Virus record (IMG/VR): IMGVR_UViG_2864522212_000004
Location: 1 to 64,000 of that record
Origin: a virus
Taxonomy: Duplodnaviria > Caudoviricetes
DNA length: 64,000 nucleotides
Strand: one strand, 5' to 3'
In this document: positions 1,418 through 62,539 of the stretch, one piece after another
How the letters are laid out: each line of letters starts with the position of its first letter
How positions within the stretch are numbered: position 1 is the stretch's first letter
The notes under the pieces: model-generated
What the model was told of the DNA's origin: nothing
Database searches by the model: none
What the model saw: only the letters and a program-made list of their open reading frames with translations
Position numbers and translations under genes: made by a program

Positions 1418-1440
1418 TATGTGGACATATTCAGTATAAC
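1418..1440 (-). promoter_or_regulatory. Conserved 23-bp promoter/operator motif, copy 1
   Basis: Minus strand GTTATACTGAATATGTCCACATA, 27 bp upstream of the 345..1391 start. Confidence 0.8.
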
Positions 1441-1451
1441 GAGCAAACGTT

Positions 1452-1490
1452 AAAAAAGAAGAGAGGATCATCGTGCTGGATGGTCCTCTC
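1452..1490 (-). terminator. Intrinsic terminator after the exonuclease gene
   Basis: Hairpin GAGAGGATCATC/GATGGTCCTCTC with a T-rich tail on the minus strand. Confidence 0.6.
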
Positions 1491-1507
1491 CGTCAACCCT
1501 CAGGCAA

Positions 1508-2437
1508 TCAGCTGGCGAGATCGCAGAGCATGTTTTCCGCAGTCAGCAGCTGCCAGTTCTGGAACGAAACCTCCTTGACCTTCTTGTTGAAACCATGTCG
1601 GAGCGCATACTTCGCGGCGGCGTCCACGGGGTCTGGAGTGTTCTCTGCGTAGCCTTCCTCCTTGGCTTTCTTGACCATCAAGGCGATGCCCAAGAGTGCT
1701 TGGCGGATGCTGGTCGCGGCAAGATTCGTGATCGGATTGTCATCGCTGATGCTGAAAGGCTGCCAGTCGCAGGCATCGGTTTTTTCGAATACCCAGAATT
1801 GCATGGTGCTGGGAGCCTTGGATCCACGGTCGAAGGCGTCCGGCTTGCATGCGGCTACCGCGGCACGGTAGAAAACGGTCTGAATGTGATAACCGTAGTT
1901 GATGACTTCCTTGGCGAATGATTCCGCGTCGGCCTTCTGGGCGGTTTTCAAATCGACCAGGTAATCGGTGCCGACGGGAATCAGATCAGGCTTCGCCTTG
2001 AGCATCAGACCGGTTTGACGGTCCTTCCATTCGATGCACTGTTCCTTGGTTCCCTGTTCGATGATTTCCATGTAATCGGGGTATTCGGGCATGAGACTGG
2101 TCTGTTCGATGCCTTCCTTCATGCGTTTGAGCAGTTGCATGTCATTGTAGGAGACGATGATGTTTCCTGCTTCCAGCTGGTCTGCTCGCCACTTCTGGTT
2201 GTCTTTGCTCCTGAAGCTCTCTCCCTCAGGCAGGCTGACAACGTCGCTGGTGCCGAGCAGGTAAGCGTGGAACGCCGTACCGAACTTCATGGCGTCGGTG
2301 GGCTTGTGGTCGTCGTTGAGACGGTGATATGCCCAGTCGGCCGGGTTTTTCAGGAATTGTTTCAATTGGCTTTGGTCGATTGATTTCAACCGGAAGTAGC
2401 CGGGGTCGTCGATGTCGATGATTTTCGCGTAGGCCAT
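1508..2437 (-). CDS. RecE-like (Exo VIII / DUF3799-type) PD-(D/E)XK exonuclease
   Basis: Motifs SQLKQFLKNP, AMKFGTAFH, KAKPD...LVDLKT, YGYHIQ..FY. Confidence 0.85.
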   Translation of the reverse strand: MAYAKIIDIDDPGYFRLKSIDQSQLKQFLKNPADWAYHRLNDDHKPTDAMKFGTAFHAYLLGTSDVVSLPEGESFRSKDNQKWRADQLEAGNIIVSYNDMQLLKRMKEGIEQTSLMPEYPDYMEIIEQGTKEQCIEWKDRQTGLMLKAKPDLIPVGTDYLVDLKTAQKADAESFAKEVINYGYHIQTVFYRAAVAACKPDAFDRGSKAPSTMQFWVFEKTDACDWQPFSISDDNPITNLAATSIRQALLGIALMVKKAKEEGYAENTPDPVDAAAKYALRHGFNKKVKEVSFQNWQLLTAENMLCDLAS

Positions 2438-2512
2438 TGGTGTCTTTCCTTCTTGGATTCAAGTTCCGGGCATGCCTATGGACGGAGCATGCCGGAACGG
2501 TATGTGGGGAGG

Positions 2513-3160
2513 CTACTTGTTGTTCACTGGATCGGATTCGGCGATTTCCTGGGCTGACATGTCAGCCTCGTCGACGTACACGCTGGTGTTGCCACTTTCC
2601 GGATCCACGACGACGTGAGGCTCGTCGTAGGTGATGGGTTCTCCGGTCGTCTCGTCGAACTCCGGGCTGACGGGCACCGGGTCGGAGAGGTGGAGATATC
2701 CGCCATCGGCTTTCTGCTGGGCGCGGTTGACCTCTTCCCAAGCGTTCTCCCAGTTGAAGAATTCCTCCGAATAACCCGGGTATGGTTCCTTGTTCTTGGT
2801 TTCCCAGTCGAGGAGCTGCTTCGGTGTGACGGGTTGCGAGGGGTGGAATTCCTCGGTCAGTCCTTCGGGGATCGGCACTGTGTAGTCGCTGAGACGGTCC
2901 TCGTCGTCTTCGTCGGGTGCGACGAATCGGACTTTCGCTTTGATGGGGGTGTTCATAGGTTGCTCCTTTTCCAGTTTTTTCCTGATTTGGATTGCTGTTT
3001 CGAGATATTCGATGAGCTGATGGTATACGGCGTAGGACAGGCTCATGGGGTTGTCCTCGTACTTGCTGTACGTGTTGACGCTCATGCCCAGCAGGTCGGC
3101 TATCTCGTTTTTGGTTTTTCCTGCTAGCTGGCGCAGGCGTCTGATTGATAGCTGGTTCAT
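2513..3160 (-). CDS. XRE-family HTH regulator with acidic C-terminal extension
   Basis: IRRLRQLAGKTKNEIADLLGMSVNTYSKYE; ATG at 3160 with GGAGAGG RBS. Confidence 0.8.
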   Translation of the reverse strand: MNQLSIRRLRQLAGKTKNEIADLLGMSVNTYSKYEDNPMSLSYAVYHQLIEYLETAIQIRKKLEKEQPMNTPIKAKVRFVAPDEDDEDRLSDYTVPIPEGLTEEFHPSQPVTPKQLLDWETKNKEPYPGYSEEFFNWENAWEEVNRAQQKADGGYLHLSDPVPVSPEFDETTGEPITYDEPHVVVDPESGNTSVYVDEADMSAQEIAESDPVNNK

Positions 3161-3332
3161 TCGCCTCTCCTGGATGCAGTGGTCGGACTGGTGTCGTCCA
3201 GTCTTCTGGTTGTGTTCACGCTCCCATTGTACAACATGCAGAAAACTGCGTTTTTCAGCATTCTCTAACAAGGAGAAACGCCTTGGAAATAAAGGCAACA
3301 CGCCGAATAATATACATGTTCAGATAACTGCG

Positions 3333-3354
3333 TATATTTGAATATGTCCACATA
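3333..3354 (+). promoter_or_regulatory. Conserved motif, copy 2 (variant -10)
   Basis: TATATTTGAATATGTCCACATA upstream of the SSB gene, between divergent XRE and SSB genes. Confidence 0.7.
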
Positions 3355-3432
3355 GAAAAAAGAAGAGAAGACGAAAACTCCCATCCTCAATGCACTGTGG
3401 AGCGATCGTCAAATCGTCAAGGAGGAACCATC

Positions 3433-4608
3433 ATGGCAACAGAACTGCTAACTCACGCGAAAACCGGAGTCATCCAGATGGGATGGCCCAAGCTCTACGA
3501 GGCGGTCGCATTCAAGGGAAACAAGGACGATGACAAGTCCGCCAAGAAGGACGATAAGAAGAAAAACGAAAGCACGCCTGCATACGGGTTCCCTGTGCTT
3601 CTCGACAAGGATGACCCCGATCACATGCGAACCGTCCGAATCCTTCAGAAGCTGAGCAAGAATGCGGAAGCCAACGCCATCGCCTTGAAGAAATGGGGCA
3701 AGAAGGATCGTATCGTTTCCAATGACGGTCTCAAGGATGCCGACGAGGATGAAATCCTTGACGGTGATAAAACCGTCCTCATGACCGATAAATATCCGAA
3801 TCGAGCCAACCATTTTTATGTGAACTTCAGTCGTAGCTCCAAGGCTGGTCGTCCCGGAATCCGCTACATCGACGATGAAGGAATCCTGCGTGAGCTCCCC
3901 GAACCGATTCTCGGGACAAAGGAGGACATTCAGGCCGCTCAAGCCAATCTTAATGATGCCCGAGCCGCTTACGCTACGGCTGATGAAGACGCTCGGGAGG
4001 AGGCGAAGACGCTCGTTCTGGAGGCGACGCGCAATCTTGAGGAGGCTCAGGAGCGTGATGCCAAGGCCAAGGAAGTCAAGGTCTTATGGGATAAGCTGGT
4101 GTATCCCGGTCAGAACGTGCAGGCTTCGGTTACGGCACGTGCGTGGAAGACTCAGACCGGTAGCGGTGTCAGCTATCGTTTGGATAATCTCACGATTGTT
4201 GGCGGAGGCGTGCGAGATGGAAGCTTCGAATACGATGAGGACTTCACCGATGAGGATATCGAGGCTCTTATCGCTTGGCGAGACAAGCATGTGAACGCAA
4301 AGCCTTCCAAGGCCGATGATGAGGCGGCCCTTCTTGCGGATACTGACTTCGATGAGGCTGATTCCGATGATGAGGTGGACGAGGATACCGGTGAAATCGC
4401 GGTCAAGCCACGTCGCAAGGCTGCCGTTTCCCGTCGTCGTCCGAAGCCTGTCGAGGTTGAAGATGATGACGTGGACGAGGACGAGGACGAGGAGGAAGCT
4501 CCGCGCCATCGTCCGAAGAAGACCTCTTCGCGGGGCCGTCGTAAGCCGGCTCCTGTCGAGGTTGAAGATGATGACGTGGACGATGAGGATTATCCCGACA
4601 TGTTCTGA
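3433..4608 (+). CDS. Phage-type (gp2.5/DUF2815-like) single-stranded DNA-binding protein with coiled-coil insertion and long acidic tail
   Basis: WPKLYE, YGFPVLLDK, LKDAD, FYVNFS...PGI, VYPGQNVQASV, GVSYRLDNL; acidic tail ending in F; GGAGG RBS. Confidence 0.7.
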   Translation: MATELLTHAKTGVIQMGWPKLYEAVAFKGNKDDDKSAKKDDKKKNESTPAYGFPVLLDKDDPDHMRTVRILQKLSKNAEANAIALKKWGKKDRIVSNDGLKDADEDEILDGDKTVLMTDKYPNRANHFYVNFSRSSKAGRPGIRYIDDEGILRELPEPILGTKEDIQAAQANLNDARAAYATADEDAREEAKTLVLEATRNLEEAQERDAKAKEVKVLWDKLVYPGQNVQASVTARAWKTQTGSGVSYRLDNLTIVGGGVRDGSFEYDEDFTDEDIEALIAWRDKHVNAKPSKADDEAALLADTDFDEADSDDEVDEDTGEIAVKPRRKAAVSRRRPKPVEVEDDDVDEDEDEEEAPRHRPKKTSSRGRRKPAPVEVEDDDVDDEDYPDMF

Positions 4609-4611
4609 TGT

Positions 4612-4660: not shown

Positions 4661-4668
4661 ATGGGATT

Positions 4669-16397: not shown

Positions 16398-16613
16398 ATG
16401 GGAACAGCAGAAAAACTAGAAGCCACAGACATTCGACCTGGAAGACCTCGACTCGGAGGATACGACGAAGCCACCGCCATCATCAACTTCAAAGTCCCCG
16501 CATCTTGGAAGACCGCGATGGCCCAAGAAGCTAAAAGTCGAAATCAAAACCTGTCCGATTATCTAAGGGAAGTCACATCACTTGGATATTCGGCGATGCA
16601 CGCCGGAGAGTAA
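16398..16613 (+). CDS. Ribbon-helix-helix DNA-binding protein
   Basis: GRPRLG...IINFKVP...AQEAKSRNQNLSDYLRE. Confidence 0.65.
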   Translation: MGTAEKLEATDIRPGRPRLGGYDEATAIINFKVPASWKTAMAQEAKSRNQNLSDYLREVTSLGYSAMHAGE

Positions 16614-18939: not shown

Positions 18940-19911
18940 ATGCACGGAACATTCAGCAGGCCTATGAAAATACTCGCCAGTGTTATTACAGTGGCGGTTC
19001 TCGTCGCTGGCATCCTGGCTTGGAGTACGTGGCGTAAAAAAGTCACTGCCGCGGAACACCAGCAGGCGCAAGCCCAACAGTTGAAAAAACAGCAGTCGGA
19101 GGAACGCAAGAAAGCCGCTGAGGCTGCCGCAAATCAGCTGACCGATGAGGAGAAACAACAGTACACGGATCTCGCCATCAAATTCGAACAGGCAGCCCGC
19201 AACTGGGGGAGTGACCCCACGATCAATTTGGACTCGCTCAGCCAACATGATGCTCAACAGGTAATCGACCAGTTGCGGACACCGGACATCGGAAGCAATC
19301 CTCTACCCGCTCTGAGCGCTATCCCCGCGGATAAGAACGATGGGCCTGATGCCGTCAGCTATCCATGCGAAGAGGAATATGAAAACGCTTGTAAAGCGTA
19401 TCCGACAATGAAAGCATGGTGGAACAGTGAGGCGTTGGCGACCGGCAGCCGGTGGACGGACGGACCTCACGTGACGGTCAACGAAGACCGAACGGTCACG
19501 GTCACAGGAAAGGTCGAATCCATACTTTTGCAGGACGGTGATTCCTTTAACAATGGGAGCATCTGGGCATTGACTCCAGCTTGGAGAGACTACGACATCA
19601 ACGATGAACTCACCATCGCAAACGGGAAAATCAGCGGCATGAACATCAACGGCGACAACCCTTGGTGGATTAATCCTTGGCTGACACGCTGGGACAATAA
19701 CATGGCCGACGATTTGAGCGAGGGGACCAGAATAGCCATCCCAGTGAAAGGCGACCCCGAGATGGGCCTCGCCCATTCCAGCATGACGCCCATCCTTAAG
19801 GGACCTGTCACGCAGTCGGACTTGGATGGCAAGGTTGACTGGCATCTTTGGGATAGCATTCCCATGGCATCGGTTGGGGGAGGCTGCCAGAATCCGGGAT
19901 ACTGCGGCTAG
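18940..19911 (+). CDS. Membrane-anchored extracellular protein
   Basis: N-terminal TM (ILASVITVAVLVAGILAW), coiled-coil linker, extracellular domain. Confidence 0.7.
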   Translation: MHGTFSRPMKILASVITVAVLVAGILAWSTWRKKVTAAEHQQAQAQQLKKQQSEERKKAAEAAANQLTDEEKQQYTDLAIKFEQAARNWGSDPTINLDSLSQHDAQQVIDQLRTPDIGSNPLPALSAIPADKNDGPDAVSYPCEEEYENACKAYPTMKAWWNSEALATGSRWTDGPHVTVNEDRTVTVTGKVESILLQDGDSFNNGSIWALTPAWRDYDINDELTIANGKISGMNINGDNPWWINPWLTRWDNNMADDLSEGTRIAIPVKGDPEMGLAHSSMTPILKGPVTQSDLDGKVDWHLWDSIPMASVGGGCQNPGYCG

Positions 19912-21209
19912 TTCTTCCAGCTTTTCTTCCGGAAGAACACGTTGCCGGCACCATCGAACTGCTTTTGCGTGAGCCAGCGGCTGTTGTACCCCTCCCATGG
20001 GCCGCTTCCGTCCGTGCCGTAGTTTCCCTCGCTGATTCGGATCTTCCATCCGTTTGCGTCCTGCTTGACTTCTTCGACCACGGCGATATGCCCGGAGCTC
20101 ATATCACCTCCCAAAGCACCGCCGTACTGACTGACGCCATCCCCCGGGTGTGGACTGGAATCGACTGTGTATGCAGGGTCGGAGGCGAGATGCACATGGA
20201 CGTCACCACCCACGGGGGTGTTCCAGTTTGCCACGTCATGGTGGTGAATCACCCATAGTCTGACAAGTGCATACCAGTAGCACTGGTAATGTCCGCCGTT
20301 GGCAAAGGAAGTGAATGGCCCGTAGTCCCCGTCGTGACACACTTTTGCGTCAGTATCGCACAGCCAGCCAAAATTACGGGTTTTGCCTATAGGAGCCCCG
20401 CCCACGGAGCCAACGACGGCACTGCCTCCATCACCATCGTCGTCGGATGAGCAGGAAGCTTGAACGACATTGTCGGAACCACTGGAATCGTCGCTTGCCT
20501 TCCCAGTGAAATCAATCGTACTAATCTCCGGTGAATCATAGTAGGAGCGCGCATACTTCTTACGTTCCTCTTCATGCCGAGCGTTCCACGCTGGGCGCGC
20601 ATACCCGGCAAGCCATGCGATTGAGGCGTCCTCCGGATTATCCGCATGCAGCCACCATTTGTGCAGGTCATGGTCGGTGACGTTGTACCCTTCGGCCTCG
20701 ATGTTATCCAGATAGAAGTTGTTCCAATCGGATTTGGACGTGTCAACCAGCATTTTTATCTGCACGTCGGCATCAGAGTCTTTGCCAGACACGTTATGCT
20801 GATCCATCCATGCCTGGATTTTGCTGCGCGGTGTCCACTGATTCAGACCGAAGCCACGCAATTCGGGATTGGTCTCGCCTACCTGCTCCTGTTCCGGATT
20901 CATCCCAGATTCGAACTGGATCACACCAAGAACGCCTGCTGTGCTGGCTTTCGAATACCCGGCTTTGGCGAATGCCTCGGCTATGGCCACCGCGACCTTG
21001 TTGGGGGCTATCGATGTGGTCCCGGTTGTCGAATCATCATCTGATGAGGTGCCGCAATCATATTCTGCGGCTGATAATGACTTTCCGACGTTGCTGGTAA
21101 GGGCCGCGACACTGCCGGAAATGGCACTCACCACGTTCATGACGATAAGACCGTTCAACCCCACCAGCAATGCGGCTCCCGCAGCCATGAGTTTTGTACT
21201 GGTTTTCAA
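19908..21209 (-). CDS. Conjugative cell-wall hydrolase: phage-tail-lysozyme domain + CHAP domain (VirB1-like role)
   Basis: AGVLGVIQFESGMNP, GFGLNQWT; CHAP QCYWYA...GHIAVVE...ISEGN. Confidence 0.88.
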   Translation of the reverse strand: MKTSTKLMAAGAALLVGLNGLIVMNVVSAISGSVAALTSNVGKSLSAAEYDCGTSSDDDSTTGTTSIAPNKVAVAIAEAFAKAGYSKASTAGVLGVIQFESGMNPEQEQVGETNPELRGFGLNQWTPRSKIQAWMDQHNVSGKDSDADVQIKMLVDTSKSDWNNFYLDNIEAEGYNVTDHDLHKWWLHADNPEDASIAWLAGYARPAWNARHEEERKKYARSYYDSPEISTIDFTGKASDDSSGSDNVVQASCSSDDDGDGGSAVVGSVGGAPIGKTRNFGWLCDTDAKVCHDGDYGPFTSFANGGHYQCYWYALVRLWVIHHHDVANWNTPVGGDVHVHLASDPAYTVDSSPHPGDGVSQYGGALGGDMSSGHIAVVEEVKQDANGWKIRISEGNYGTDGSGPWEGYNSRWLTQKQFDGAGNVFFRKKSWKN

Positions 21210-22016: not shown

Positions 22017-25000
22017 TCACTGCTCCTTGTTCTTTCGTTGTTCTCGTGCGATCTTGTCCGTGGCGGTGGTGCTGATTTCCTTCAACAATGCCGGAGGAAT
22101 CACGATTTCCACTGGAATAGGCTGCTTGGACCCGTCCTTGAAATAGGCGACGGCTCCGCGAACGGTCTTCCCCGTCGACGCGCTTACCAGACGCTTCAGA
22201 CTGTTCGGGTTCGGCTGACCGTTGTCCAAAGTATCATCGGCTCCCATGCGCTGCAAGATCCGACCATTGGGGTCTTCGATGCCTAGGAGTCGTTCCGCTG
22301 ATTTGGCCGGACTGACCGTGCCATTGGCTTCCTCCGGGTTGTCCAACGCCAGAAGGAGGGCGCGGCTGATGCCGCCGGTCAAGTCGGCATCGATGAACTC
22401 CTGCACTTTCTGACTGATGATGACAGGCGTGAATCGTTGCGAACGGGCCATACGCACCCATTGTTCGAAGGTTCGGGAAGCTCCCTTGTCCTTGCCCATG
22501 AACACCCATGCCTCATCGACACCTACCATGCCATCGCGGCCTCGAACGGCGGTGCCGGCTCCCATGACGACCATTCGCAACGTCCACTGGCGGATGCGAG
22601 CGGTCATGGAATCATCTTGGCCTTCGGGGATGAGTGAACGGTCTCCGGCATTGATGAGGGTCAGGTTTTGGCTGATCGTCAACGGCTTGGTGTCATTATC
22701 GGTGCCGAAGATAAGACGTAGTCCCTGGTTCGCCTTCAGGTTCATGCTGATTGTCGAAAACACCTCGAGGGTGTTGGAAGGCAACCCAATGGACTCCGCC
22801 GTGTTCCCCGCTTTGATGGTCTTCGCAACAGCTTGGGCGGCGACAAGCAGAGCCCGGCCTACGCAACGCGCCCCGTGTTTGACGCCGTAATCCAGCATGG
22901 CTGTCATGGCGGATTCCATCTTTGTGTCACCGCCAAGAATGTTCGTCATCATCAGGACGGCGATTTCCTTGGCCTCCTCCACATTCGGAATCACGTTGAA
23001 CGGGTCGAACGTGCCGTTAGCCACATCGGAATCCAACCGGATGACCGTACCACCCTGCGAACGGGTCGCATCCTCCAAATCATTACCGGCCTTCGGATTA
23101 ATGTAAATGCACGGGGTCTTGCCTTTACCGTCACGCGCGTCAATCTTCGACCATTGCAGAAACAGGCTGAACGACGCCATCGTATTATGGGTCGGCACGT
23201 AATCAGCGATGAGGAACGAATGGTCAGGGCTTCCAACGGTCAGACAACGATGAGGCGCGTTGGATATCTTCCTGATGTCTTTGACGTATAGCCATTGCTG
23301 GGTTTGTCTCAACGTCGTAGGGATTAAAGCCGCTTTGCGTTGCAAAGAGAATACCGGCAGATCCGTCGTGAAGGTGATGCGATAACGATCCTGAGCCTCG
23401 TGACGCACACCATCAGCCGTGTATCCTGCTTTGTTGAGATGGGGTTCGTGAACGACGATTCCCAGAGATCTTAGCAGGCGCACCATTCCTCGGACAATCG
23501 GCAGATGATCGGCGGACTGGGTGAACTCTATATTCCCATTTGAGGAGATGGTCCCATCCTGATCCAGCAACCCCTGCACGAGGGAGAGTCTTTGCTCGAT
23601 GCTCGCCGAGAAGTAGATCTCAGGAATGCGTTTTTCGCGGAGTATCCCCATATCGCGAAGAATGGAGACAAGCCCCTTCACATTCACGACCATCGGCGTA
23701 TTGATGCTTCCTAGAGAAAATCCCGCAGAGGTGAGACAGGACTTCACATGCTGCAAATCACCATTCCTGTTATCTGAAGCGATGATTCCAGTGCCGATAC
23801 TACCGTCGGCTAACCAAGCCCCTAAAACCCATGGGTCAAGTGGCAGGTCGGCTTGCGGGTTGGTAACAGGCATCGCGGCTCGGATTGCCCATTGCGCACG
23901 ATTGCCTGAATCCTTTAGACCAGACGCAAGCATGTCTCGCGTAGTCACAACCTGTTCACAATATCCAAGGGAATTGGTCTCGTTGAAGGCCCCCTCATAA
24001 CGAAGCATCATGCGTTGCCCTATGGCTCTGCATGCTTCTCGAACGTTGTATACAGATACCGAATCATGACGCATTCTGTCGGAGTGAATTCGTTCTTCCG
24101 TATCCCACTCACTGATTGGATTGAGCGTTTTTATGACAGATTCGATAGAGGAACGGCTTGGTGAACGATTCTCGAGCATCTTCTGTATGTCAGTGATGCT
24201 GATGCCCTTCGGATAGTTATCTTCCAAATGCTTTCTTAGGACATCCGCACGCTCCCTGGCGAGATCGTTCCATCTTTTCGCATGCTGCGCCACGTCATCA
24301 TAATGTGCAATCAAAGCCCGAAGAGCTTCCTGCATGTTATAGCGCCTACAGTTCTGCCGAGTCTTAAAAGGTTTTTTTGTATCCGCTATCGCGCGGTCTC
24401 GCTGTTCTTGATGAGATTCAACTCCCATAAATCGCAGCGCTGCGGCAATGGTCCTGGCATTGCTCTCTCCGCTCCACCAACGACTCGTTACTGGATGGAC
24501 AAACTCTGCAAGCTCGTTCACGCTCATGGTTGATTGGGCCGGTAGCGCATCAGACATCCGACATAGCTCATCGTATGTCTCCGACAGCATGTTCTTACGC
24601 TGTTGGGATTTCAAATGTTTTGGTTTTCTGAATTTGTTTCGATCTTTGAAATCGGAGACGATCCACTGGTGGTTCCCGCTGGCTTTTATCGTTTGACCGT
24701 CACTGAGGGTGACTTCGTAAAGATCTTCCGTGTGAATCGGATGAAGCTTGAGGAGTGGATAAGGTTTTCCGTCCCGCCCGTAGACGAGGTCTCCCTCATG
24801 CAAATCGCTGATCTTAGCCATTTTTCCATGGGGGAAGCTAGCCTGAGGGGGAACCGGAATTGTGGAGGAAATGTGAACGGCCTTCCCGCTTCCTGTATCT
24901 CCGATAATAGCCAAAATTGGACGCCTGTCCTTGTCCTGCACGGTTGTTGTCCCGATATACACCGGTTGCCTGTTGGCTTCGGACAATCCGACAAGAGCTC

Positions 25001-26336: not shown

Positions 26337-26359
26337 ATATTCCACGATAGATTTTGATG

Positions 26360-26386
26360 TTGTTATTAACCGATATTCTATTGAAA
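26360..26386 (-). promoter_or_regulatory. Transfer-operon motif copy B
   Basis: TTGTTATTAACCGATATTCTATTGAAA, 23 bp from the VirB4-like start. Confidence 0.6.
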
Positions 26387-26422
26387 ATACCCGTTTTTCG
26401 GTTGGTGGCGATATCCAAAAAA

Positions 26423-26451
26423 AATATCCCGACCGCAATGGTCGGGAGATT
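26423..26451 (-). terminator. Intrinsic terminator
   Basis: TCCCGACC-GCAAT-GGTCGGGA hairpin with a T-run on the minus strand. Confidence 0.6.
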
Positions 26452-27326: not shown

Positions 27327-27504
27327 AAGTCTTCCTTTTATGCAGATGTTTTCAGTATAACAGCCACGACAGAGGGTGACGTGCTCCCGCCACCTGACCG
27401 CTTCGCGATCTGAGGTGGGGGGGGGCTTCCTGCTCAAGGCTCGTATCCGAGTCAGTGTCTACAGGCTATTCCCGTGCGCCCCACGGTTCTCGTAAGTTTT
27501 TTTG

Positions 27505-29638: not shown

Positions 29639-29674
29639 AGAACAATCTTATCACATGCGGATATATTCAGTATG

Positions 29675-29947
29675 TCAGGTAAGTGTCTTCAGCTCGTACA
29701 CAACCAATTCAGGCGCCTCACGAACCCGACCGAAAAGCTCATGACCACGCTTCGACCGCTCGATCGCACGTATCACCACCTCCGGAGCGGAACGGATATC
29801 CAATCGATCTTTCCCGACCCTATCCGCCCACAAATTCTGTATCACCGTCAACTCGACACGATTAACACTGCGAATCTGCAAAGACTGCCGCTCGACCCGA
29901 TGCAATCGTACATATTCAGCGGCCACATCAGCCAACCCGACACCCAA
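29675..29947 (-). CDS. Hypothetical protein
   Basis: 90-aa ORF, TTG start with AAGGA RBS. Confidence 0.45.
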   Translation of the reverse strand: MGVGLADVAAEYVRLHRVERQSLQIRSVNRVELTVIQNLWADRVGKDRLDIRSAPEVVIRAIERSKRGHELFGRVREAPELVVYELKTLT

Positions 29948-30277
29948 CTAATTCTTCCTTTCTCGACGAAACGCATATACCAAAGAGGGGACCATGGACG
30001 CGGCCGCAAAAACAAGCGAAGACACCGCCAAGATGAGCCTCCACATCAAAGGCACCCCAACCGCAAGCCAGGAAACCAACTGCATCCCCAACAACCAGAA
30101 CACCGCGAAAACCAGCATTCCCAGCACGAGCGCCCAGCTCAAACGTCGTTCCTTCCGACGCTTTCTCGCTATTTCGCGCCGCGACGGTTCGACGGTACTG
30201 CCACTGATTCGAGCCGGTTCCAGAATGATCGTCGTAGTCGCCCCGATGGTTTCGCCGGCGCTGTTTTCCTTACTCAC
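29948..30277 (-). CDS. Two-TM membrane protein
   Basis: Basic stretch followed by two hydrophobic helices; start uncertain. Confidence 0.55.
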   Translation of the reverse strand: MSKENSAGETIGATTTIILEPARISGSTVEPSRREIARKRRKERRLSWALVLGMLVFAVFWLLGMQLVSWLAVGVPLMWRLILAVSSLVFAAASMVPSLVYAFRRERKN

Positions 30278-30632: not shown

Positions 30633-30655
30633 TATGTGGACATATTCAGTTTAAC
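30633..30655 (-). promoter_or_regulatory. Conserved motif copy
   Basis: Minus strand GTTAAACTGAATATGTCCACATA. Confidence 0.75.
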
Positions 30656-31313: not shown

Positions 31314-31336
31314 TATGTGGACATATTCAGTATAGC
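31314..31336 (-). promoter_or_regulatory. Conserved motif copy
   Basis: Minus strand GCTATACTGAATATGTCCACATA upstream of the exonuclease. Confidence 0.8.
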
Positions 31337-33147: not shown

Positions 33148-33213
33148 TATGTGGACATATTCAGTATAACATGTAAAATACAATATGGTTGTTATACTGA
33201 AGAAGTCCACATA
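33148..33213. promoter_or_regulatory. Back-to-back divergent pair of conserved motif copies
   Basis: 33148-33170 (minus, perfect) and 33191-33213 (plus, GTTATACTGAAGAAGTCCACATA). Confidence 0.82.
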
Positions 33214-37629: not shown

Positions 37630-38963
37630 GCGGCCGCGAGAAACCGGATGCGCCCGGACTGTGGCGGGATGCGAACGAGAAAACGGTCGTGGCCTGCATG
37701 GAATCCGGCGAGCTCGCGATACGGGATGCGGACACCGGCGAGATCCTGTCCGCGGGACAGCTGGAACAGGCCGCACCGTTCCAGCGAACCGAATGGAAGG
37801 GGATAGACCTGACCAGGGCCGGGTTCTCCGCCATGCCCGACACGGCGGGATGCTGGAGCGACGCGAACGGCACGCTCTGGCTCATCACAGGCGGCGACGG
37901 GATCGACGGGCACATCTTCCGGCTGAAGGAAGAGGGCCGCGAATGGGAATGCGCGCCTTGTTCCGGCATCACCGTGAGGATGCTCCACGAATGGGGCCCG
38001 TGGGCACGCTGCGACTTCAATCCGAAGGATGATGAAGCCGTTCGTTTTGACTGGTGCAAGCCGTGGATCGCCGATCATGGTTGGGATGATGATATGTCCG
38101 AACCCGCATCGTCTCTGCTGGCTCGTATCAAGGAGATTCGGAAGAGTCTGCCGGAGGAGAACGGCCTGTGGAGGTTCGGACATGCCGGGTCCGGCGTCGT
38201 CTTCGGGGACGGCGGCGGGAAGCGCCTGTTCCTGTTCGATTCGGGCGGAGGTTTCCTGGACGGGGGTTTGGGCTCATGCACACGGCTCCGACTCGGCATT
38301 CCGGTCGGTTCCGCGCCGATCCCGAACCTGCCGGGCGTGTGGATGGACAAGGACGGGAACCTGTTGGCGGTGTCCGGGGAACGTCGGGTGAGGATTTGGA
38401 ACAACCATGACTGGATGGCCGAAGAGCTTGACGACGATTCCGGGGAACCGTCCGCGCATGGCCCGTACACCCGGTATTCGCTCCAAACCGTCGAAGAGGT
38501 CCCATGGAAGCCGGAATCCGGCGATTCCACTCCGATCCATGAGGGGAGCCGCACCGTGCATCTCCCGGATGTCCGATCGTTCGGCCGTCTGGAACGGGAC
38601 AAGTGGCTTGCCGTGAAGAACCTTGAGGAGAGCGCCGAACTGGTGGAGGCCTGCAAGCAGTGGCTGAAGGCCTGTGATCCGGCCGATCCGAGCAGCATCG
38701 GCGACCAGTTCGACGACCATGCGAACTGCCTCGCCTGCTACGGGGTGAACGTGGGCGGCGAACTCGGCGACGACCGGGACAAGGCGAAGGCCGGCTGGAT
38801 AGGCCATGTGCGCGACCAGCGTCGCCAAGCCATGCTCGACGAGCTCGCCGACGTGCTGCAGACGGTAGGCAACCTGATCACGGCGTTCGGCATCACCGAT
38901 GAGGAGGTCGAACGGGCGATGAGCGACTGTCTGGAACGCAACAGGCGGAAAGGACGGCTCTGA
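37626..38963 (+). CDS. Protein with repeated G-x-W-x-D-x-x-G units and a C-terminal MazG-like NTP pyrophosphohydrolase domain
   Basis: KNLEESAELVEA...LDELADVLQ...RNRRKGR; N-terminal PGLWRDAN, AGCWSDANG, PGVWMDKDG. Confidence 0.7.
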   Translation: MSGREKPDAPGLWRDANEKTVVACMESGELAIRDADTGEILSAGQLEQAAPFQRTEWKGIDLTRAGFSAMPDTAGCWSDANGTLWLITGGDGIDGHIFRLKEEGREWECAPCSGITVRMLHEWGPWARCDFNPKDDEAVRFDWCKPWIADHGWDDDMSEPASSLLARIKEIRKSLPEENGLWRFGHAGSGVVFGDGGGKRLFLFDSGGGFLDGGLGSCTRLRLGIPVGSAPIPNLPGVWMDKDGNLLAVSGERRVRIWNNHDWMAEELDDDSGEPSAHGPYTRYSLQTVEEVPWKPESGDSTPIHEGSRTVHLPDVRSFGRLERDKWLAVKNLEESAELVEACKQWLKACDPADPSSIGDQFDDHANCLACYGVNVGGELGDDRDKAKAGWIGHVRDQRRQAMLDELADVLQTVGNLITAFGITDEEVERAMSDCLERNRRKGRL

Positions 38964-39217
38964 TGGAGACCACGAGAATCTGGGATTCCCGCAACAACAG
39001 GCATGCGACGGTCGAACACGAGACGTTGAGACCATGCCCGTTCTGCGGCGGCACGCCACGAATCGACGATGATGTGGACGATACGACGGAACGGTACACG
39101 GTGCGCTGCGACTGCGGCGGGAGCATGCCGGGCCGGTACGTTCCGATCGACCCATCGTTCCAGACCCGCGTCACCTGCCTGCATTCGGCGGTCGAGAAAT
39201 GGAACAGGAGAGGCTGA
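38963..39217 (+). CDS. Lar-like (restriction-alleviation family) zinc-finger protein
   Basis: LRPCPFCGG...VRCDCG...AVEKWNRR. Confidence 0.75.
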   Translation: METTRIWDSRNNRHATVEHETLRPCPFCGGTPRIDDDVDDTTERYTVRCDCGGSMPGRYVPIDPSFQTRVTCLHSAVEKWNRRG

Positions 39218-51091: not shown

Positions 51092-51114
51092 GTTATACTG
51101 AGTATGTCCACATA
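51092..51114 (+). promoter_or_regulatory. Conserved motif copy
   Basis: GTTATACTGAGTATGTCCACATA preceded by T (extended -10). Confidence 0.8.
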
Positions 51115-51136: not shown

Positions 51137-51469
51137 ATGGCACTCACCATCGAAGAACAACACGAAACCAACGACCTCGACCACGACATCCTCGCCACCC
51201 GCGAAGTCACCTTCATTTGCGGGCACAAGCGCGTCTACGAGGACATCAGCGCCTGCCAGAAAAGCTGGATGGAACGCTGCCAACGGTGCCCCAACTGCCA
51301 GTACAAGCGCGACAAGGCATACGTCGAAAAGCTGTCTGCCGAAATCAACTCACCAGAACTCCTCGAGATGTGGCTCAAAGAAACCCCTCCTACTAAGACC
51401 AGCAGGAAAGGAGCCATCAGACTATTTAGGCAAGGAACCTCAATAAACACTGACTTTTCCGCGCCATAG
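51137..51469 (+). CDS. Small zinc-binding protein
   Basis: FICGH...CPNC; GAGGA RBS. Confidence 0.6.
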   Translation: MALTIEEQHETNDLDHDILATREVTFICGHKRVYEDISACQKSWMERCQRCPNCQYKRDKAYVEKLSAEINSPELLEMWLKETPPTKTSRKGAIRLFRQGTSINTDFSAP

Positions 51470-51573
51470 CATCTTGTGTGAGCATGTCCAGTAGTTCACC
51501 TACTTTGGGTCTTGCAGCTTTTGCTGTCGTAGGATCATTGGTTTCTATGAAACGTCATTCTATGTGGACAAAT

Positions 51574-51643: not shown

Positions 51644-51666
51644 GTTATACTGAATATGTCCACATA
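51644..51666 (+). promoter_or_regulatory. Conserved motif copy (perfect)
   Basis: GTTATACTGAATATGTCCACATA. Confidence 0.82.
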
Positions 51667-51683: not shown

Positions 51684-51851
51684 ATGAACACGTACAAGAA
51701 CTTCGAAAAAAACGCCAACATCATACTCGCCATAACATGCGTCCTCTGCGCATGCTTCATGTGGAGAGTCACAGGGCTCGCAATGGTCATCGCATCAATC
51801 GGATTCGCAACCTCAGGAACACTGATGATTACCCACTTCGTGACGCGATGA
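51684..51851 (+). CDS. Small two-TM protein
   Basis: MNTYKNF..., hydrophobic; follows a motif copy. Confidence 0.55.
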   Translation: MNTYKNFEKNANIILAITCVLCACFMWRVTGLAMVIASIGFATSGTLMITHFVTR

Positions 51852-57406: not shown

Positions 57407-58075
57407 TTAATCACCTTGTCGGAGGCCGCCTGATCCGCCTGCGAATCGGACCGGGATGTCCGCGCATTTCGCCGTCTCCAACAGGAGACGGAACAGTCGG
57501 ACGGTTTCCTCCCTGCCCTCCATAGGGTCGAAACGGATGCCGTCGCCTTTCGACATGGCGGTCTCCAGCATGTACGCCACCTGACCGTCCGCCCCGATGA
57601 ACGCGAGACCGGAACCGTTCTCCACCCACGCCTCGCGGATCGTGTCCCATCGGAAGTTCAGATATCGGCCGAATCCACGGAGGACATCTGCGCCGATCCA
57701 CATGGACCGGCAGCAGGCCAAGAACTCCGCCGACGTGATATTGACGTTGAAGCCGTTCGATGTATCGCCCATCATGAATCCCACCTGGTCGCCGTCCTTC
57801 CCCTCCACGAACGGGACGAGGGTGGCGAGGACGGCGGCAAGAAGGGCGAGCAGTGCGTGATCGCCGTCCTTCAGCGGTGTCCGCTCCCCGTTCACGATGC
57901 TCATGTTGACATGGTTGAACGCCTCCACGATGGCGGCGGACTCCTCGAAGGCGGCGGGCATATCCCCGTCACCGGTCATGCGGAACACACCGTCCGGGTC
58001 GAACTCCCAATCATATTCGACCGGATTGTTGCAGGTCTCGTCATTGGTCTCCACGATGATGCGTTCGACGCTCAT
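57407..58075 (-). CDS. Hypothetical protein
   Basis: Last gene of a coupled leftward run; AAGGAG RBS. Confidence 0.6.
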   Translation of the reverse strand: MSVERIIVETNDETCNNPVEYDWEFDPDGVFRMTGDGDMPAAFEESAAIVEAFNHVNMSIVNGERTPLKDGDHALLALLAAVLATLVPFVEGKDGDQVGFMMGDTSNGFNVNITSAEFLACCRSMWIGADVLRGFGRYLNFRWDTIREAWVENGSGLAFIGADGQVAYMLETAMSKGDGIRFDPMEGREETVRLFRLLLETAKCADIPVRFAGGSGGLRQGD

Positions 58076-58665
58076 TGCTTCTCCTTGTCCAATACGGTTC
58101 TGGATACTTTCAGATATCGTGTGCCGCCCGACTGGCGTAGCTGGCGGTTGTTGATGCTGTCGATGACCGGGGCTGGGGGATCCGTATACGATTCATGCGC
58201 CCGGACGATCACATGATGATTCGGGTTGAACCCGGAGTACAGGTGCGTGATCGCGAAGGTCGCCGATAGTACGTCCAGATCCTTGAAATCGTAGATGGTG
58301 TCCGTTCGGAACCCGTCGATGCCGGTCGGCGGTTCGACCGGTTCGAGACCATGGACGCCGAACATCGCCACCCTGACCCTCATGTCCGGATCATGCTCGA
58401 ACAGGTGCGCATATTCGTCGCGCAGCACATCATATTCGGCTATCGCCCGTTTCGCGGTCATCGGCATGCTCTCCGGGTCGGCAAGCATACGTTTCACGAA
58501 CGCAATGCCCTCGTCGGTGATGATCCGGTCATGCTGCCCGAAATCGACCAAGCCGCGTTCCTTCAACGCGTCGAAACCATAGGGGCCGGTATACCACGAG
58601 TCTTCCTTGAGCCTGTCGACGGCGAAAAACAGCATGGCGTACTGGGCTTTCGTGATGCTCTTCAT
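58072..58665 (-). CDS. Hypothetical protein
   Basis: ATGA-coupled ORF. Confidence 0.6.
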   Translation of the reverse strand: MKSITKAQYAMLFFAVDRLKEDSWYTGPYGFDALKERGLVDFGQHDRIITDEGIAFVKRMLADPESMPMTAKRAIAEYDVLRDEYAHLFEHDPDMRVRVAMFGVHGLEPVEPPTGIDGFRTDTIYDFKDLDVLSATFAITHLYSGFNPNHHVIVRAHESYTDPPAPVIDSINNRQLRQSGGTRYLKVSRTVLDKEKQ

Positions 58666-59450
58666 CGATTGTTCCCCGTCCATTGGCTCAGGTATCCGCG
58701 CACGTCGGCCGCCGTGCCCTCCCTGTCGGAGTCGAAGCCGTCCGGCTGCCAGGTGCCGTCCGACATGATCAGCAGGTCCAGACTGATGGGATGGTCTTCC
58801 GCACCTTGGCTTTGGAATATGACGGCGCCGGTTTCGACCGGGTCGCCGTTCGAGAACAGGTCATCCCAGTACACGTCATCCGCCTCCAATGCCTCGACCC
58901 TGCCAAGACCGGCGACGGTCTTCCGGTAGCCATCGAGAATCTTCCCGCGATTTCTGACCGCTTCGATCAGCCGACTTGCCGCATGCGTCGGATCGGCGGG
59001 CAATAGCGCACGGAACACGCTTTCGCCGACCTCGAACACCAGATAGTCCGGATCCGAAGAGCGCGTGGCGGGGATACCTGAATCGTTCAACCGTTTCACG
59101 GCCTTGTCGGCCTCGTCCATGATGCCGCGGTCCTTGCGCCACTGGTCGTATCCGACGTCGAACAGGACCGTCATGGTCGTCTCATAGTCGGTGTCGAAGG
59201 TCGTTGTTTTCGGATGCCACCAGCCGTCGGAAACCGTCCAGTGGATCAGGTTCCCGTCGAATTCAAGGCGAATGCGCCAGTAGTCGAACGGTCCGCTTCG
59301 TGTTTCGAATGTGGATTTGCAGTCGAACAGTCTTCTCAGGTTCGACCATTCGTACGGTAACATCGGCGTGATTCTGAGCAGAATGATGTTGTCGGCCATC
59401 AACCAGTGACAGTCTGCGAAGAAACGAATCTCGGGCGTGACGACGCTCAT
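58662..59450 (-). CDS. Hypothetical protein
   Basis: ATGA-coupled ORF (MSVVTPE). Confidence 0.6.
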   Translation of the reverse strand: MSVVTPEIRFFADCHWLMADNIILLRITPMLPYEWSNLRRLFDCKSTFETRSGPFDYWRIRLEFDGNLIHWTVSDGWWHPKTTTFDTDYETTMTVLFDVGYDQWRKDRGIMDEADKAVKRLNDSGIPATRSSDPDYLVFEVGESVFRALLPADPTHAASRLIEAVRNRGKILDGYRKTVAGLGRVEALEADDVYWDDLFSNGDPVETGAVIFQSQGAEDHPISLDLLIMSDGTWQPDGFDSDREGTAADVRGYLSQWTGNNR

Positions 59451-59866
59451 TCCCTGCACCATCCTCTCTGTTTCGTCTCCACATACATGGCGTCGCGCAC
59501 CTCGGTGTCGTTCCAACCCCATTCGCGGGCGAGATGCAGGTAGTGTTCGCCTATCACATCGATGACGGATTGCAGGCCCGCACGGTCGGGCACCCCGTAA
59601 TCGTTGGCCTCCGTATTGAATTCCAGCCAGTCCGCTTCGGATACCGAACGCGGTCCGTCATGGTCGGTGATATCCGGTGTGGCCGGTTTGGGTTCCGGCT
59701 TCCATTCTGGTTGTGGCGGTGTGTAGTCGGTCCAGCCGCGCTGCCTGTCGGCCTCGCGCGCCTCCGGTTCGTCCGCCAGCCATTGCTCATGCGTTTCCGC
59801 TTCCTGCCTGTCATCGAACTGCTTGCCATCCGAAGTGGTGTATATGATGCTTGTTTCGATACTCAT
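59447..59866 (-). CDS. Phage-like hypothetical protein
   Basis: YTTSDGKQFDDRQEAETHE; GGAGG RBS. Confidence 0.6.
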   Translation of the reverse strand: MSIETSIIYTTSDGKQFDDRQEAETHEQWLADEPEAREADRQRGWTDYTPPQPEWKPEPKPATPDITDHDGPRSVSEADWLEFNTEANDYGVPDRAGLQSVIDVIGEHYLHLAREWGWNDTEVRDAMYVETKQRGWCRE

Positions 59867-60411
59867 GATTCCTCCAACTGGTATCCGATGTGGCGCAGCG
59901 CGTCCGTGATGGTTTCGCCCGGTTCGCCGCCAAGCGACCGCCCGCCATACTTGTCGTATATCCGCCATTCGTCGGGCTCGGACTGGTAGGCGTATACGGT
60001 GTCCGTCGGCTTCCCGTCCGGCGCCGTCAGTTCGATCGGCTTCGACTCGCCCCGCTCCGACCGCCATCGTGCGATGCCGTGCTTGCGTTCCATGAGCGTT
60101 AGGCTCGCGCCGTCCAGTCCGGCTTCCAGCAGGCTCATGTATTGGCTGTCATCGTTTTCGCGGATATGCCAGTCGTCGCCGTAGTTGTCCTCCATGCCGA
60201 CCAGCAGCAGGGGCAGGCCGGTGCGGCCGCGCCCCTCGTCGCGCACAATCTCGAACGGACGGTCCAACTCGTTGAACGCGGTCTGCCAGATGATCCAACC
60301 CTTGTCGCCGACGCGCGGCGAATCCGGACCATAGCCGTCGCCGTCCTGCCGATCGTCGTAATGGAACCGGTCGAGCAGCCGATGCTCGAAGCGTTCGTCA
60401 ACCGGATTCAT
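59863..60411 (-). CDS. Hypothetical protein
   Basis: MNPVDE..., GAGAGG RBS. Confidence 0.6.
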   Translation of the reverse strand: MNPVDERFEHRLLDRFHYDDRQDGDGYGPDSPRVGDKGWIIWQTAFNELDRPFEIVRDEGRGRTGLPLLLVGMEDNYGDDWHIRENDDSQYMSLLEAGLDGASLTLMERKHGIARWRSERGESKPIELTAPDGKPTDTVYAYQSEPDEWRIYDKYGGRSLGGEPGETITDALRHIGYQLEES

Positions 60412-60419
60412 CGTCCTCT

Positions 60420-60689
60420 CTACCTTTCCCCGCAATCCCAACGGTCGTAGCATGCGGGGCATTCGTATTGCGCGTATTCGGGATTCCACTTGGCGTGCTC
60501 ACGGCATACCAGACGCCAGCAGGCCTCACATATCTCGCCGCAGTTCGTGCAGTTGACGCGCCCGCAACAGGGGCATTTCCTCGCATGCTCCTCACATAAC
60601 GGTATGCCGCAACCGCCGCAGTGGTCAGCCACGTCATCCGGCTCGTACGGGCCGTGGATTGAATCTTCGCAGGTTTCGTTCGCGTTCAT
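60420..60689 (-). CDS. Cys-rich multi-zinc-finger protein
   Basis: Repeated CxxC / CxxH. Confidence 0.6.
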   Translation of the reverse strand: MNANETCEDSIHGPYEPDDVADHCGGCGIPLCEEHARKCPCCGRVNCTNCGEICEACWRLVCREHAKWNPEYAQYECPACYDRWDCGER

Positions 60690-60701
60690 GATGGTTCCTT
60701 T

Positions 60702-61040
60702 TCATTCCTTGCCTAACAGGTCAAGTCCGGCGCATACCGTCTCCCATACGGTCTTGTCGTCGAATGCGATGAGCATGCCGGATATGCTGTATTCGCTCGC
60801 ATGAGGCAACGCGTCGCCGCAATCCACGGCCGCACGCCAGGTGCCGTCGAACATGCCGTAGTCGTCCAGATCGCCCGCATACGACACGTCCGACGGCTTC
60901 GCATGGCCGAGCCGTCGGAATTCCTCGTCGGTAAGAAAGCGCCATTCGCGCGTATCGCGCACGCGCAGGTCGTCTCGGTTGGTTTGCAGTGTAGCGAGTA
61001 TCGCCTTGCGGGCGGTCGTGTGGAAAGATGCTGTTTTCAT
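60702..61040 (-). CDS. Hypothetical protein
   Basis: AAGGAG RBS, coupled. Confidence 0.6.
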   Translation of the reverse strand: MKTASFHTTARKAILATLQTNRDDLRVRDTREWRFLTDEEFRRLGHAKPSDVSYAGDLDDYGMFDGTWRAAVDCGDALPHASEYSISGMLIAFDDKTVWETVCAGLDLLGKE

Positions 61041-61663
61041 GATGATCGTCTCCTTTTCGTCCGTTCTACGTGCGACGCGAATTCCAATGCCTTCTCGCCC
61101 TTGTCGGTCAGCGCGTCGAACACTTGGTCGATGTAGTATCTGCGTTCCAGCACGCCCAGCTCCCGTAGTCGTTGCGATTCCTCCGCCGGTTTGACCACGC
61201 CATACGGTTTAAGGTCTTTCAGGATTGCGATGTCCCGCCCGTCCAGCAGCGGCGGGTCGTCGGGTTCCAGCAACGCTTTCAGACGGTTGGCCTTGTCTTC
61301 CATGTCGGATACGGCGACGGACAGCGAATCAGGCATTGGCGTATCCGTACCGTCGCACAGGCTCGCCCACTTTTTGCGCTTGTCTTTCGCCTTGTCGAGG
61401 TATTTGTTCGCTGTGAGGGTGATTATCCGCACGCGGAATTCGTCGAAGTCGCAGACTCCTTTATGATGGTCGTAATCCCGCCAGACGAAGGTGCCGTTCG
61501 GACGAATCGAGCATTCAAGGAACACGTACACCTTGTTAGGGTTGCGGATGTCCGCTACGTAGTCGGAGTATTCCGATTCGACCAGAGCGAACTCCACGCC
61601 TTCCTTGCCCAGCCTGTCCAATAGGTCGCGGATGGATTGCAGCGTCTTCTCGATTTTCAGCAT
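61037..61663 (-). CDS. Hypothetical protein
   Basis: 208 aa; C-terminus possibly winged-helix-like. Confidence 0.6.
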   Translation of the reverse strand: MLKIEKTLQSIRDLLDRLGKEGVEFALVESEYSDYVADIRNPNKVYVFLECSIRPNGTFVWRDYDHHKGVCDFDEFRVRIITLTANKYLDKAKDKRKKWASLCDGTDTPMPDSLSVAVSDMEDKANRLKALLEPDDPPLLDGRDIAILKDLKPYGVVKPAEESQRLRELGVLERRYYIDQVFDALTDKGEKALEFASHVERTKRRRSS

Positions 61664-61666
61664 TGT

Positions 61667-62206
61667 TCAGTCCTTGTCCAGTCGGTGCACGTTGGACAGC
61701 ATGTGCGATGCGGCCTGACGGCGCGTCTCATACGGGGTGCCGAGTTCCTCGCCCAGCAGCCACCCCTCGAACACGGACACCGGGTCGTGTCCGGAGTATT
61801 TGTTGCAGGATTCGCACACATGCATGTAGTGTTCGGCCATGTCTTCCACATCCTTCGCCTCCTGTTCGTCGCCAAGCGTGTTCCGGCACCATTCGGCGGT
61901 CCTGTCGAACTTGTCTTTCAACCGCATGAGCCGGTCGGTGCGCGACATGGGCGAGGACAGCAGTCGGGCCAGTTCGTCCAATGCCTGCTCCTCGCCCATG
62001 TCGGCTGTATCGAGGACGGTGTTATCCTCGACAAGCTCGTACTGCGTGCGGACGATGCGGATGGTGTCGCTGTCGGGAAGGTTGACGGTAATCTCGTATC
62101 CCGCTTGGGGGTCGCACGCGGTGATGCGTCCGAACTGGTGGTCGTTGTACACATGCCAGCCCGTCAGTGTGCGGGTGACGGTGATGAGGATGTCGCGTGT
62201 TTTCAT
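61667..62206 (-). CDS. Hypothetical protein
   Basis: MKTRD..., in the coupled run. Confidence 0.55.
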   Translation of the reverse strand: MKTRDILITVTRTLTGWHVYNDHQFGRITACDPQAGYEITVNLPDSDTIRIVRTQYELVEDNTVLDTADMGEEQALDELARLLSSPMSRTDRLMRLKDKFDRTAEWCRNTLGDEQEAKDVEDMAEHYMHVCESCNKYSGHDPVSVFEGWLLGEELGTPYETRRQAASHMLSNVHRLDKD

Positions 62207-62306
62207 TTTGTCAGTTCCATTCCTTCGGCGCGACGACAATCCAGCCGTTCCGCTTGAAAGCGTCGAGTACATCTTCCGTGACCTGTTCCATAGTGTCCGT
62301 CATGAG

Positions 62307-62498
62307 TCAGTCCTCCACATTTTCGGTCTTGATGACCTGTGCGTCACTGTCGCTGAGTTCGACCTGTTCGCCTAGACGGTATTCGTCGGCGTTGTTGAGG
62401 AGTTCGTTGATGGCATCCTGTTCGGTGGAGTCGTCGTCGAGTTCGACGGTGAAGGTGCCTGAGTAGGTTTCCTCATAGTTGATGGCGTAGCGCTTCAT
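62307..62498 (-). CDS. Small acidic protein, first gene after a motif copy
   Basis: MKRYAINY..., GAGGA RBS. Confidence 0.6.
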   Translation of the reverse strand: MKRYAINYEETYSGTFTVELDDDSTEQDAINELLNNADEYRLGEQVELSDSDAQVIKTENVED

Positions 62499-62516
62499 GG
62501 TTTCCTCTTTCGTTTT

Positions 62517-62539
62517 TATGTGGACATATTCAGTATAAC
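62517..62539 (-). promoter_or_regulatory. Conserved motif copy (perfect)
   Basis: Minus strand TGTTATACTGAATATGTCCACATA heading the ~5-kb leftward run. Confidence 0.82.

Follow-up and report, generated by a model that had tools for sequence, protein, structure and literature searches.

The closest described system to the one treated here is a 34-bp motif, AWAYATGYTATACTGAATATGTCCACATAAAAWA, that overlaps the -10 box in the Bifidobacterium megaplasmid pMP7017 (Dineen, Bottacini, O'Connell-Motherway and van Sinderen, 2024; PMC10832533). The motif was first detected at six highly expressed genes, with RNA from mid-log cultures of a stable pMP7017 carrier, and 13 more copies were found later; together these 19 copies are predicted to drive 56 genes, or 24% of the coding capacity (PMC10832533). 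The set was termed a 'presumed pMP7017-specific regulon', the motif was proposed as a likely transcription-factor site that 'may inhibit or enhance transcription', and bifidobacterial chromosomes were reported to be without it (PMC10832533). The genes that it drives are expressed at very different levels: some highly, Lar moderately, the methyltransferase that follows ssb at a low level and most cas genes below threshold (PMC10832533). Published reporter data for pMP7017 concern the repA and repB promoters only, both of which are without the motif, and a 2021 paper on pMP7017 replication does not deal with it. Here we study a 23-bp repeat, GTTATACTGAATATGTCCACATA, in a stretch of 64,000 nucleotides (the window), which is bases 1-64000 of the 136,254-bp record IMGVR_UViG_2864522212_000004 (G000).

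The record is held in IMG/VR as a provirus with a CheckV completeness of 63%, and many sister contigs likewise stand in the viral collection. Judged by its sequence, the replicon is a conjugative Bifidobacterium longum megaplasmid of the pMP7017 family that has been filed as a virus: 25 kb of the record are 92-98% identical to six B. longum and B. breve megaplasmids, among them its sister plasmid pMP7017, and it encodes parA, FtsK/SpoIIIE-type translocases, a VirB4-like ATPase and a cell-wall hydrolase. Megaplasmids of this type occur in roughly 1/10 of surveyed microbiome samples, mainly those of infants and mothers (PMC10832533). The repeat has the same sequence as the 34-bp motif (the copies here fit the published consensus ...TATACTGAATATGTCCACATAAAA...), the same place over the -10 box, orthologous genes downstream and the same restriction to plasmids; neither the motif nor the notion of a regulon that spans the plasmid is new, and to find them here is a rediscovery. 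What we add is the lack of a -35 element, the asymmetry of the motif, a wider family of elements that carry it, its likeness to a DnaA box, and targets beyond accessory genes. The published account leaves inhibition versus enhancement open and makes no mention of the first four of these points, and its authors sought DnaA boxes in the replication region only (PMC10832533). On balance, we take the repeat to be probably a promoter and start-site cassette that is read by the host and used across the pMP7017 family.

Pattern scans find the 23-mer, with 0-2 mismatches, at eight places in the window, all of them where a preliminary description of this DNA had put them, along with the three variants (5 mismatches each) and the half copy that it listed; 100 shuffles of the sequence give 0 matches. 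When up to 6 mismatches are allowed, the whole record holds 19 copies, the three variants included. Every copy is directed at a start codon 15-29 nt downstream, which bears out the claim that the copies are aimed at genes and agrees with the published pattern of many copies per plasmid, each no more than 60 bp upstream of a start codon.

How widely is the repeat distributed? A 34-nt copy, searched against 72,556 plasmids, matches only six Bifidobacterium megaplasmids, at 15-19 places in each (19 in pMP7017), and the same search of 50,697 phage records gives no match. A sample of 401 genomes from the GTDB order of an Arthrobacter genome contains three with single matches and one with 10 copies on four contigs, and a scan of genome contigs with a 15-base pattern returns single chance matches only, among the matches listed. 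Across the plasmid and phage collections and the 401-genome sample, the motif is thus plasmid-specific and plasmid-wide, as had been proposed. The genome with 10 copies (G332, contigs C4, C23, C27 and C36; sequence TATACTGAATATGTCCACACA) probably carries another lineage of the same plasmid family.

More distant relatives, reached through homologues of the XRE-family protein encoded at 2513..3160 and consisting of contigs of the viral collection, have core proteins 40-60% identical to those of this record. They carry the motif in numbers: 34 copies in the complete 188-kb G003, which has terminal repeats (57 copies with a looser pattern), 30 in G005, 19 in G002, 10 in G001 and 6-14 in G006-G008, with 0 matches to a reversed-pattern control. 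The consensus is TATACTGAATATGTCCACATA in lineage A, to which this record belongs, TATACTGGAATTGTTCACACAAA in lineage B and (ACGTGA)TAYACTGTAANAGTCCACACAAA in lineage C, and what the lineages have in common is TGn-TAYACT-G-N5-GTYCACAYAAA. Logos drawn for all lineages make the same point, with TAyaCTG at -12..-6 and GTYCACAYA at +1..+9 shared and -5..-1 specific to the lineage. A fourth lineage, represented by G004 (IMGVR_UViG_3300049638_000780), has a promoter family of its own in 11 copies (e.g. 31968-, 49208- and 62580+), of the form GTCTTTCC-TTGACA-...-TATCCn-nGAA-TGTCAAAACA, in which a -35 box is present and a similar block stands at the start.

Closer inspection of the individual positions separates the motif into two conserved pieces. 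The first is an extended -10 box, TGnTATACT, in which (numbering the motif from its first base) T(-1) is found in 16/19 copies of the record, G(+1) in 19/19, A4 in 18/19 and T8 in 19/19; the same arrangement, TGn before a TAnnnT hexamer, recurs in lineages B and C. Upstream of position -8 the information content is near zero, and no -35 element was found, the best match averaging 2.8/6 as against 2.4/6 at random positions. The second piece, GTYCACAYAAA, is a one-directional block with its first base at the predicted +1 and a fixed spacing of six bases from the -10 box (in lineages A, A' and B, the promoter divergent from the XRE gene has seven). Positions G1, T8, G9, A10, C20, A21 and T22 are invariant among the 19 copies, and the right half, GTCCACATA, is better conserved than the left arm TATGT. 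The same picture emerges from 408 instances in metagenomic and viral contigs, forming 15 orthologous promoter sets, where -40 to -9 is freely polymorphic and -7 to +23 almost fixed, with the polymorphism inside the motif falling mainly at positions 13-15, that is, in the left arm. As far as conservation goes, the core consists of a -10 box and, at the transcription start, a block with one direction; it is not a palindromic operator.

This bears directly on the model of the preliminary description, which had read the motif as an extended -10 box followed by the palindrome TATGT-CC-ACATA over +1, bound by an XRE or RHH repressor, acting as a dimer, under which accessory operons stay silent until they reach a repressor-free recipient. 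The extended -10 box and a block over the predicted start are confirmed; the palindrome as a conserved unit is not, and we regard the operator model built on it as very unlikely. A 5+5-bp inverted repeat is present in 9 copies of the record, and its position over +1 suits repression. However, few parts of the motif are conserved as poorly as the left arm, which has disappeared from orthologous promoters and from every other lineage: the palindrome occurs only in lineage A and in none of the distant relatives, and even pMP7017-type plasmids with an identical XRE recognition helix have, for example, GTTAATCTGGGTTTGTTCACATAA at orthologous promoters instead of GTTATACTGAATATGTCCACATA. The half-site centres are only 7 bp apart, and changes in the arms are not compensatory, which also led us to reject a reading of the palindrome as a hairpin. 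The RHH candidate (16398-16613) has no Pfam match, and parA, a transfer operon and the tmRNA/tRNA region are among the loci headed by the motif. The published steady-state expression is evidence against strict silence as well (PMC10832533): because the motif was first found at highly expressed genes of a stable carrier, motif promoters are not silent in established cells.

The cassette that we favour would have three parts: an extended -10 box, unaccompanied by a -35 element, for the main sigma factor of the host; a G and then five mostly A/T bases that differ by plasmid lineage; and the one-directional block from the predicted transcription start. The -10 box and the +1 block would most likely be read by conserved host machinery rather than by a plasmid-encoded dimeric repressor, because both stay fixed while all plasmid proteins drift. 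Of the small core proteins, those best conserved from lineage to lineage are membrane proteins, and the identity between lineages is only 30-55% for the partner of ParA and for the XRE protein. In any bifidobacterial host, the cassette would give strong expression without an activator, and the +1 block would tune that expression, perhaps by binding a host protein of monomer type over the start, with DnaA as the best sequence match, or else through a role as a fixed initial transcribed sequence or as a 5' leader. The block outlasts every plasmid protein in conservation, which favours a host reader or a role at the level of RNA or RNA polymerase. A precedent of sorts is found in the early promoters of phage T5 (PN25 and its relatives), which are very strong, are read by the host RNA polymerase and have a conserved transcribed region that adds strength. 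They resemble the cassette in that the sequence just after +1 is conserved, but they have -35 boxes and belong to a lytic E. coli phage, and the effect of the transcribed region is known from T5, not from Bifidobacterium.

A motif of about 23 bp that is very uniform, lacks a -35 element, is present in many copies and occurs on plasmids only could also be, as a whole, the dedicated promoter of a plasmid-encoded activator, sigma factor or RNA polymerase, in the style of T7-type promoters, which are ~23 bp long and highly conserved. We think this highly improbable. The upstream half of the motif has the textbook form of an extended -10 box as used by the housekeeping sigma factor, and activators rarely bind downstream of the start. 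No polymerase or sigma family was found in a Pfam scan of part of the large proteins, and none is named in the annotation of the related plasmid. Moreover, the conservation of a dedicated factor would have to exceed by far that of all soluble core proteins here.

The likeness to a DnaA box resides in the +1 block, which corresponds to positions 3-9 of TTGTCCACA, the DnaA box of Mycobacterium tuberculosis and Streptomyces coelicolor (PMC4285127 Table 1) and a box type listed in the B. longum oriC (PMC2430713). The sole degenerate base of the block falls at box position 5, the N of TTATNCACA. Scored against TTGTNCACA, lineage B reaches 9/9, lineage A mostly 8/9 (ATGTCCACA) and lineage C mostly 7/9, and 20 of the 57 sites in G003 score 9/9; the promoterless block at 51561..51571 is a perfect actinobacterial-type DnaA box, TTGTCCACA. 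It is conceivable, if rather unlikely in our estimate, that the +1 block is a working DnaA box and that host DnaA sits on the start sites of 20-57 promoters per megaplasmid. A DnaA reader would have to be the host's own, because DnaA domain IV was sought among the proteins encoded on the plasmids and was absent. Promoter DnaA boxes that are already known, as in dnaA autoregulation and the stimulation of lambda pR, are likewise asymmetric 9-mers with the core GTYCACA and a free fifth position, and their reader is a universally conserved host protein able to repress or activate (PMC8203912). However, those cases involve one or a few boxes at a few promoters, whereas here 20-57 candidate boxes lie at +1 plasmid-wide.

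Several observations weigh against a cassette read by the host. A conserved 9-bp block over +1 stands where repressor operators classically lie, and its reader may be a monomeric repressor encoded by the plasmid. The published starts from which the +1 can be judged are estimates from RNA sequencing (RNA-seq) coverage and not of base resolution (PMC10832533). The expression of motif-driven genes, which extends from high to below threshold, implies that some control exists beyond what this model provides, and the block is poorer in lineage D (TGTCAAAACA). For DnaA in particular, TTATCCACA and TTATTCACA are the main boxes in the oriC of a genome with a related element, and they have A at box position 3 as against an invariant G in the motif; the window copies score only 7/9 to that oriC consensus and have A at box position 1; and exact TTGTNCACA is not enriched in the record (2 observed, 3.9 expected). 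We do not rely on a depletion of GTYCACA outside the motif, which depends on a rough background model.

The first of these objections leads to a plasmid-encoded repressor, for instance the XRE-family protein, that would bind the +1 block everywhere and throttle otherwise strong promoters, with a burst of expression on entry and a lower steady state, much as KorA and KorB act on RK2. We consider this unlikely. The block lies over the predicted start and has an information content typical of a transcription-factor site, which is also what Dineen et al. propose (PMC10832533), and the targets (ssb, Lar, methyltransferases, exonuclease) are of an establishment type. The XRE gene is present in all four lineages and in A, A' and B adjoins a motif copy that diverges from it (3332..3354 in this record), as had been described for the window, where Pfam confirms the XRE assignment. 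Its recognition helix roughly tracks the variants of block and flank, SVNTYSKYE going with GTCCACA (A, C) and STSTYKRWE with mainly GTTCACA (B). On the other hand, GTYCACA itself stays constant while the helix changes, and four lineages cannot separate covariation from shared descent. Dyad symmetry is not conserved, and the motif was recognised at highly expressed genes of a stable carrier with a non-degenerate core consensus.

Two well-known plasmid and phage systems help to place such a repressor. The KorA and KorB proteins of RK2 (IncP-1) are plasmid-encoded dimers that bind palindromic sites in promoters with -35 boxes. As here, a short conserved site stands at a fixed place in many strong plasmid promoters, of backbone and accessory operons alike; unlike here, the sites are true palindromes, whereas the symmetry of our motif is not conserved. 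A variant in which a monomer binds an asymmetric site, as gp71 of mycobacteriophage L5 does, is possible by analogy. In L5, about 30 asymmetric 13-bp sites ('stoperators'), mostly intergenic and away from promoters, silence the prophage. L5 and the plasmids studied here are both actinobacterial mobile elements with tens of one-directional sites oriented with transcription, but in the megaplasmids almost all sites are coupled to a -10 box, and carriers express the genes behind them. A few promoterless intergenic blocks oriented with transcription do look stoperator-like (G000 134720+; G003 48054+ and 82498-), although promoterless 9-mers occur in near the chance number (~4 expected in 136 kb).

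Nothing found at the gene of the XRE protein ties this protein to the block. Its own promoter is without the block in most lineages, self-regulation through the block is thus not conserved and was rejected, and a different single-copy element, conserved in sequence, lies beside the gene (Table 1). The form TTCGGCGTGTYGCC of this element is also found at G008 3311- and G004 63592-, where the XRE proteins are 39-55% identical, and it may serve as a local operator for the XRE protein. The C-terminal two thirds of the protein (YTVPIPEGLTE...EPYPGY...WEEVNRAQ..ADG) belong to no Pfam family and are better conserved than the helix-turn-helix (HTH) domain. In distant relatives, tandem repeats of 21-22 bp (e.g. 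TTTTGCACGAGAATCCTAAAC, 8 copies), which look like iterons, lie 2-3 kb from the XRE gene (L241:12661-12819, L243:13092-13208 and L242:7264-7643). The ParA partner was also considered as a conserved DNA-binding reader, being RHH-like by eye, and was rejected at 30-34% identity between lineages.

Which genes, then, does the motif drive? On the complete sister plasmid NZ_CP084013.1, 21 copies head parA (a variant copy), ssb, a DivIVA-SecE-SecG-dcm operon, an exonuclease gene, an operon that contains an RNA ligase and ends in Lar, and the region upstream of a transfer-messenger RNA (tmRNA) gene and an array of 20 tRNA genes, and a degenerate copy heads the operon with the VirB4-like ATPase and hydrolase. 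Beyond the window, the motif likewise heads parA and ssb. The motif had been described as confined to accessory operons and absent before transfer genes; both statements fail, since parA, ssb and the tmRNA/tRNA region are headed and the degenerate copy at 27339- heads the VirB4-like ATPase/hydrolase operon. The description of the downstream genes fares better: the DnaQ-like exonuclease and Lar are confirmed by Pfam, and the set does include single-stranded-DNA (ssDNA)-binding, exonuclease and anti-restriction genes. Most of the first genes downstream of the motif have no family in a Pfam search. Copies occur on both strands and throughout the record, between 1.4 and 130 kb, unlike the leading-region establishment genes of conjugative plasmids (ssb/psiB/ardA type, with ssDNA promoters), which cluster beside oriT on the strand that is first to enter. 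The copies of the window and the features beside them are collected in Table 1.

Table 1. Copies of the 23-bp motif and associated features in the window.
Feature	Position	Strand	Remarks
Perfect copy	1418..1440	-	Heads gene 345-1391 (348 aa, no Pfam family; kept in all plasmid groups)
XRE-family protein	2513..3160	-	HTH_3 at residues 6-55 (Pfam); candidate repressor of the preliminary description
Single-copy element TTCGGCGTGTTGCC (TTCGGCGTGTYGCC)	3294..3307	-	Between XRE gene and DUF2815 gene; conserved in groups A, C, D
Variant copy, -10 TATATT, block shifted one base	3332..3354	+	Heads 3397-4608, DUF2815/Enc34-type ssDNA-binding protein
Degenerate copy, 5 mismatches	27339..27361	-	Heads operon 26796-27326 ... 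22017-26438 (VirB4-like AAA_10 ATPase) ... 19908-21209 (lysozyme + CHAP hydrolase; Pfam)
Degenerate copy	29654..29676	-	Heads 29156-29638 (160 aa, no assigned function; kept in groups B, C)
Copy, 1 mismatch (TAAACT)	30633..30655	-	Heads 30274-30603
Copy, 1 mismatch	31314..31336	-	Heads 30698-31288, DnaQ-like 3'-5' exonuclease (RNase_T); group B orthologue of this promoter (G001 8921+) retains the motif
Perfect copy	33148..33170	-	Back to back with 33191+; heads 32633-33118
Copy, 2 mismatches, both in palindrome left arm	33191..33213	+	Heads operon from 33259 to terminal Lar (38963-39217)
Copy, 1 mismatch	51092..51114	+	Heads 51137-51469
Block without promoter (half copy)	51561..51571	-	Minus strand is TTGTCCACATA; no -10 box; adjoins terminator hairpin
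Perfect copy	51644..51666	+	Heads small open reading frame (ORF) 51684-51851
Perfect copy	62517..62539	-	Heads ~10 small ORFs without Pfam family (62498 down to 57407)

Some further features of these loci are worth recording. The VirB4-like ATPase (1473 aa) contains a homing-endonuclease domain (Pfam Hom_end) at residues 938-1031, and an intein seems to be inserted in this transfer ATPase. Some proteins of the small ORFs at 57407-62498 (-) are 80-88% identical in lineages B and C, as against 40-60% for the plasmid backbone, which suggests recent exchange or strong constraint. On NZ_CP084013.1 (L012:28368-34237, that is, 148367-154236), the motif stands ~560 nt upstream of the tmRNA gene (tag ANTVSSSRFTLVA) and the 20 tRNA genes, on the same strand, with a TnpB remnant between motif and tmRNA gene. 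Away from the motif, an ImmA/IrrE-type peptidase is 100% identical between this record (102993-103987) and NZ_CP084013.1 (18316-19406), while the gene directly upstream, its likely partner, is only 41% identical between both plasmids; the pair looks like a swapped specificity module.

A single promoter type is predicted to drive ~1/4 of the genes of pMP7017-type plasmids, and to know the reader of the motif would explain how these megaplasmids set expression in a new host. The cassette would also offer a compact promoter, with no requirement for a -35 element, for Bifidobacterium engineering. If the block were indeed a DnaA box, about a quarter of the plasmid genes would be tied to the replication-initiation state of the host, the plasmid would act as a large DnaA sink, and no plasmid-encoded regulator would be needed; a reader such as host DnaA would amount to an unusual wiring of most plasmid cargo to the host cell cycle.

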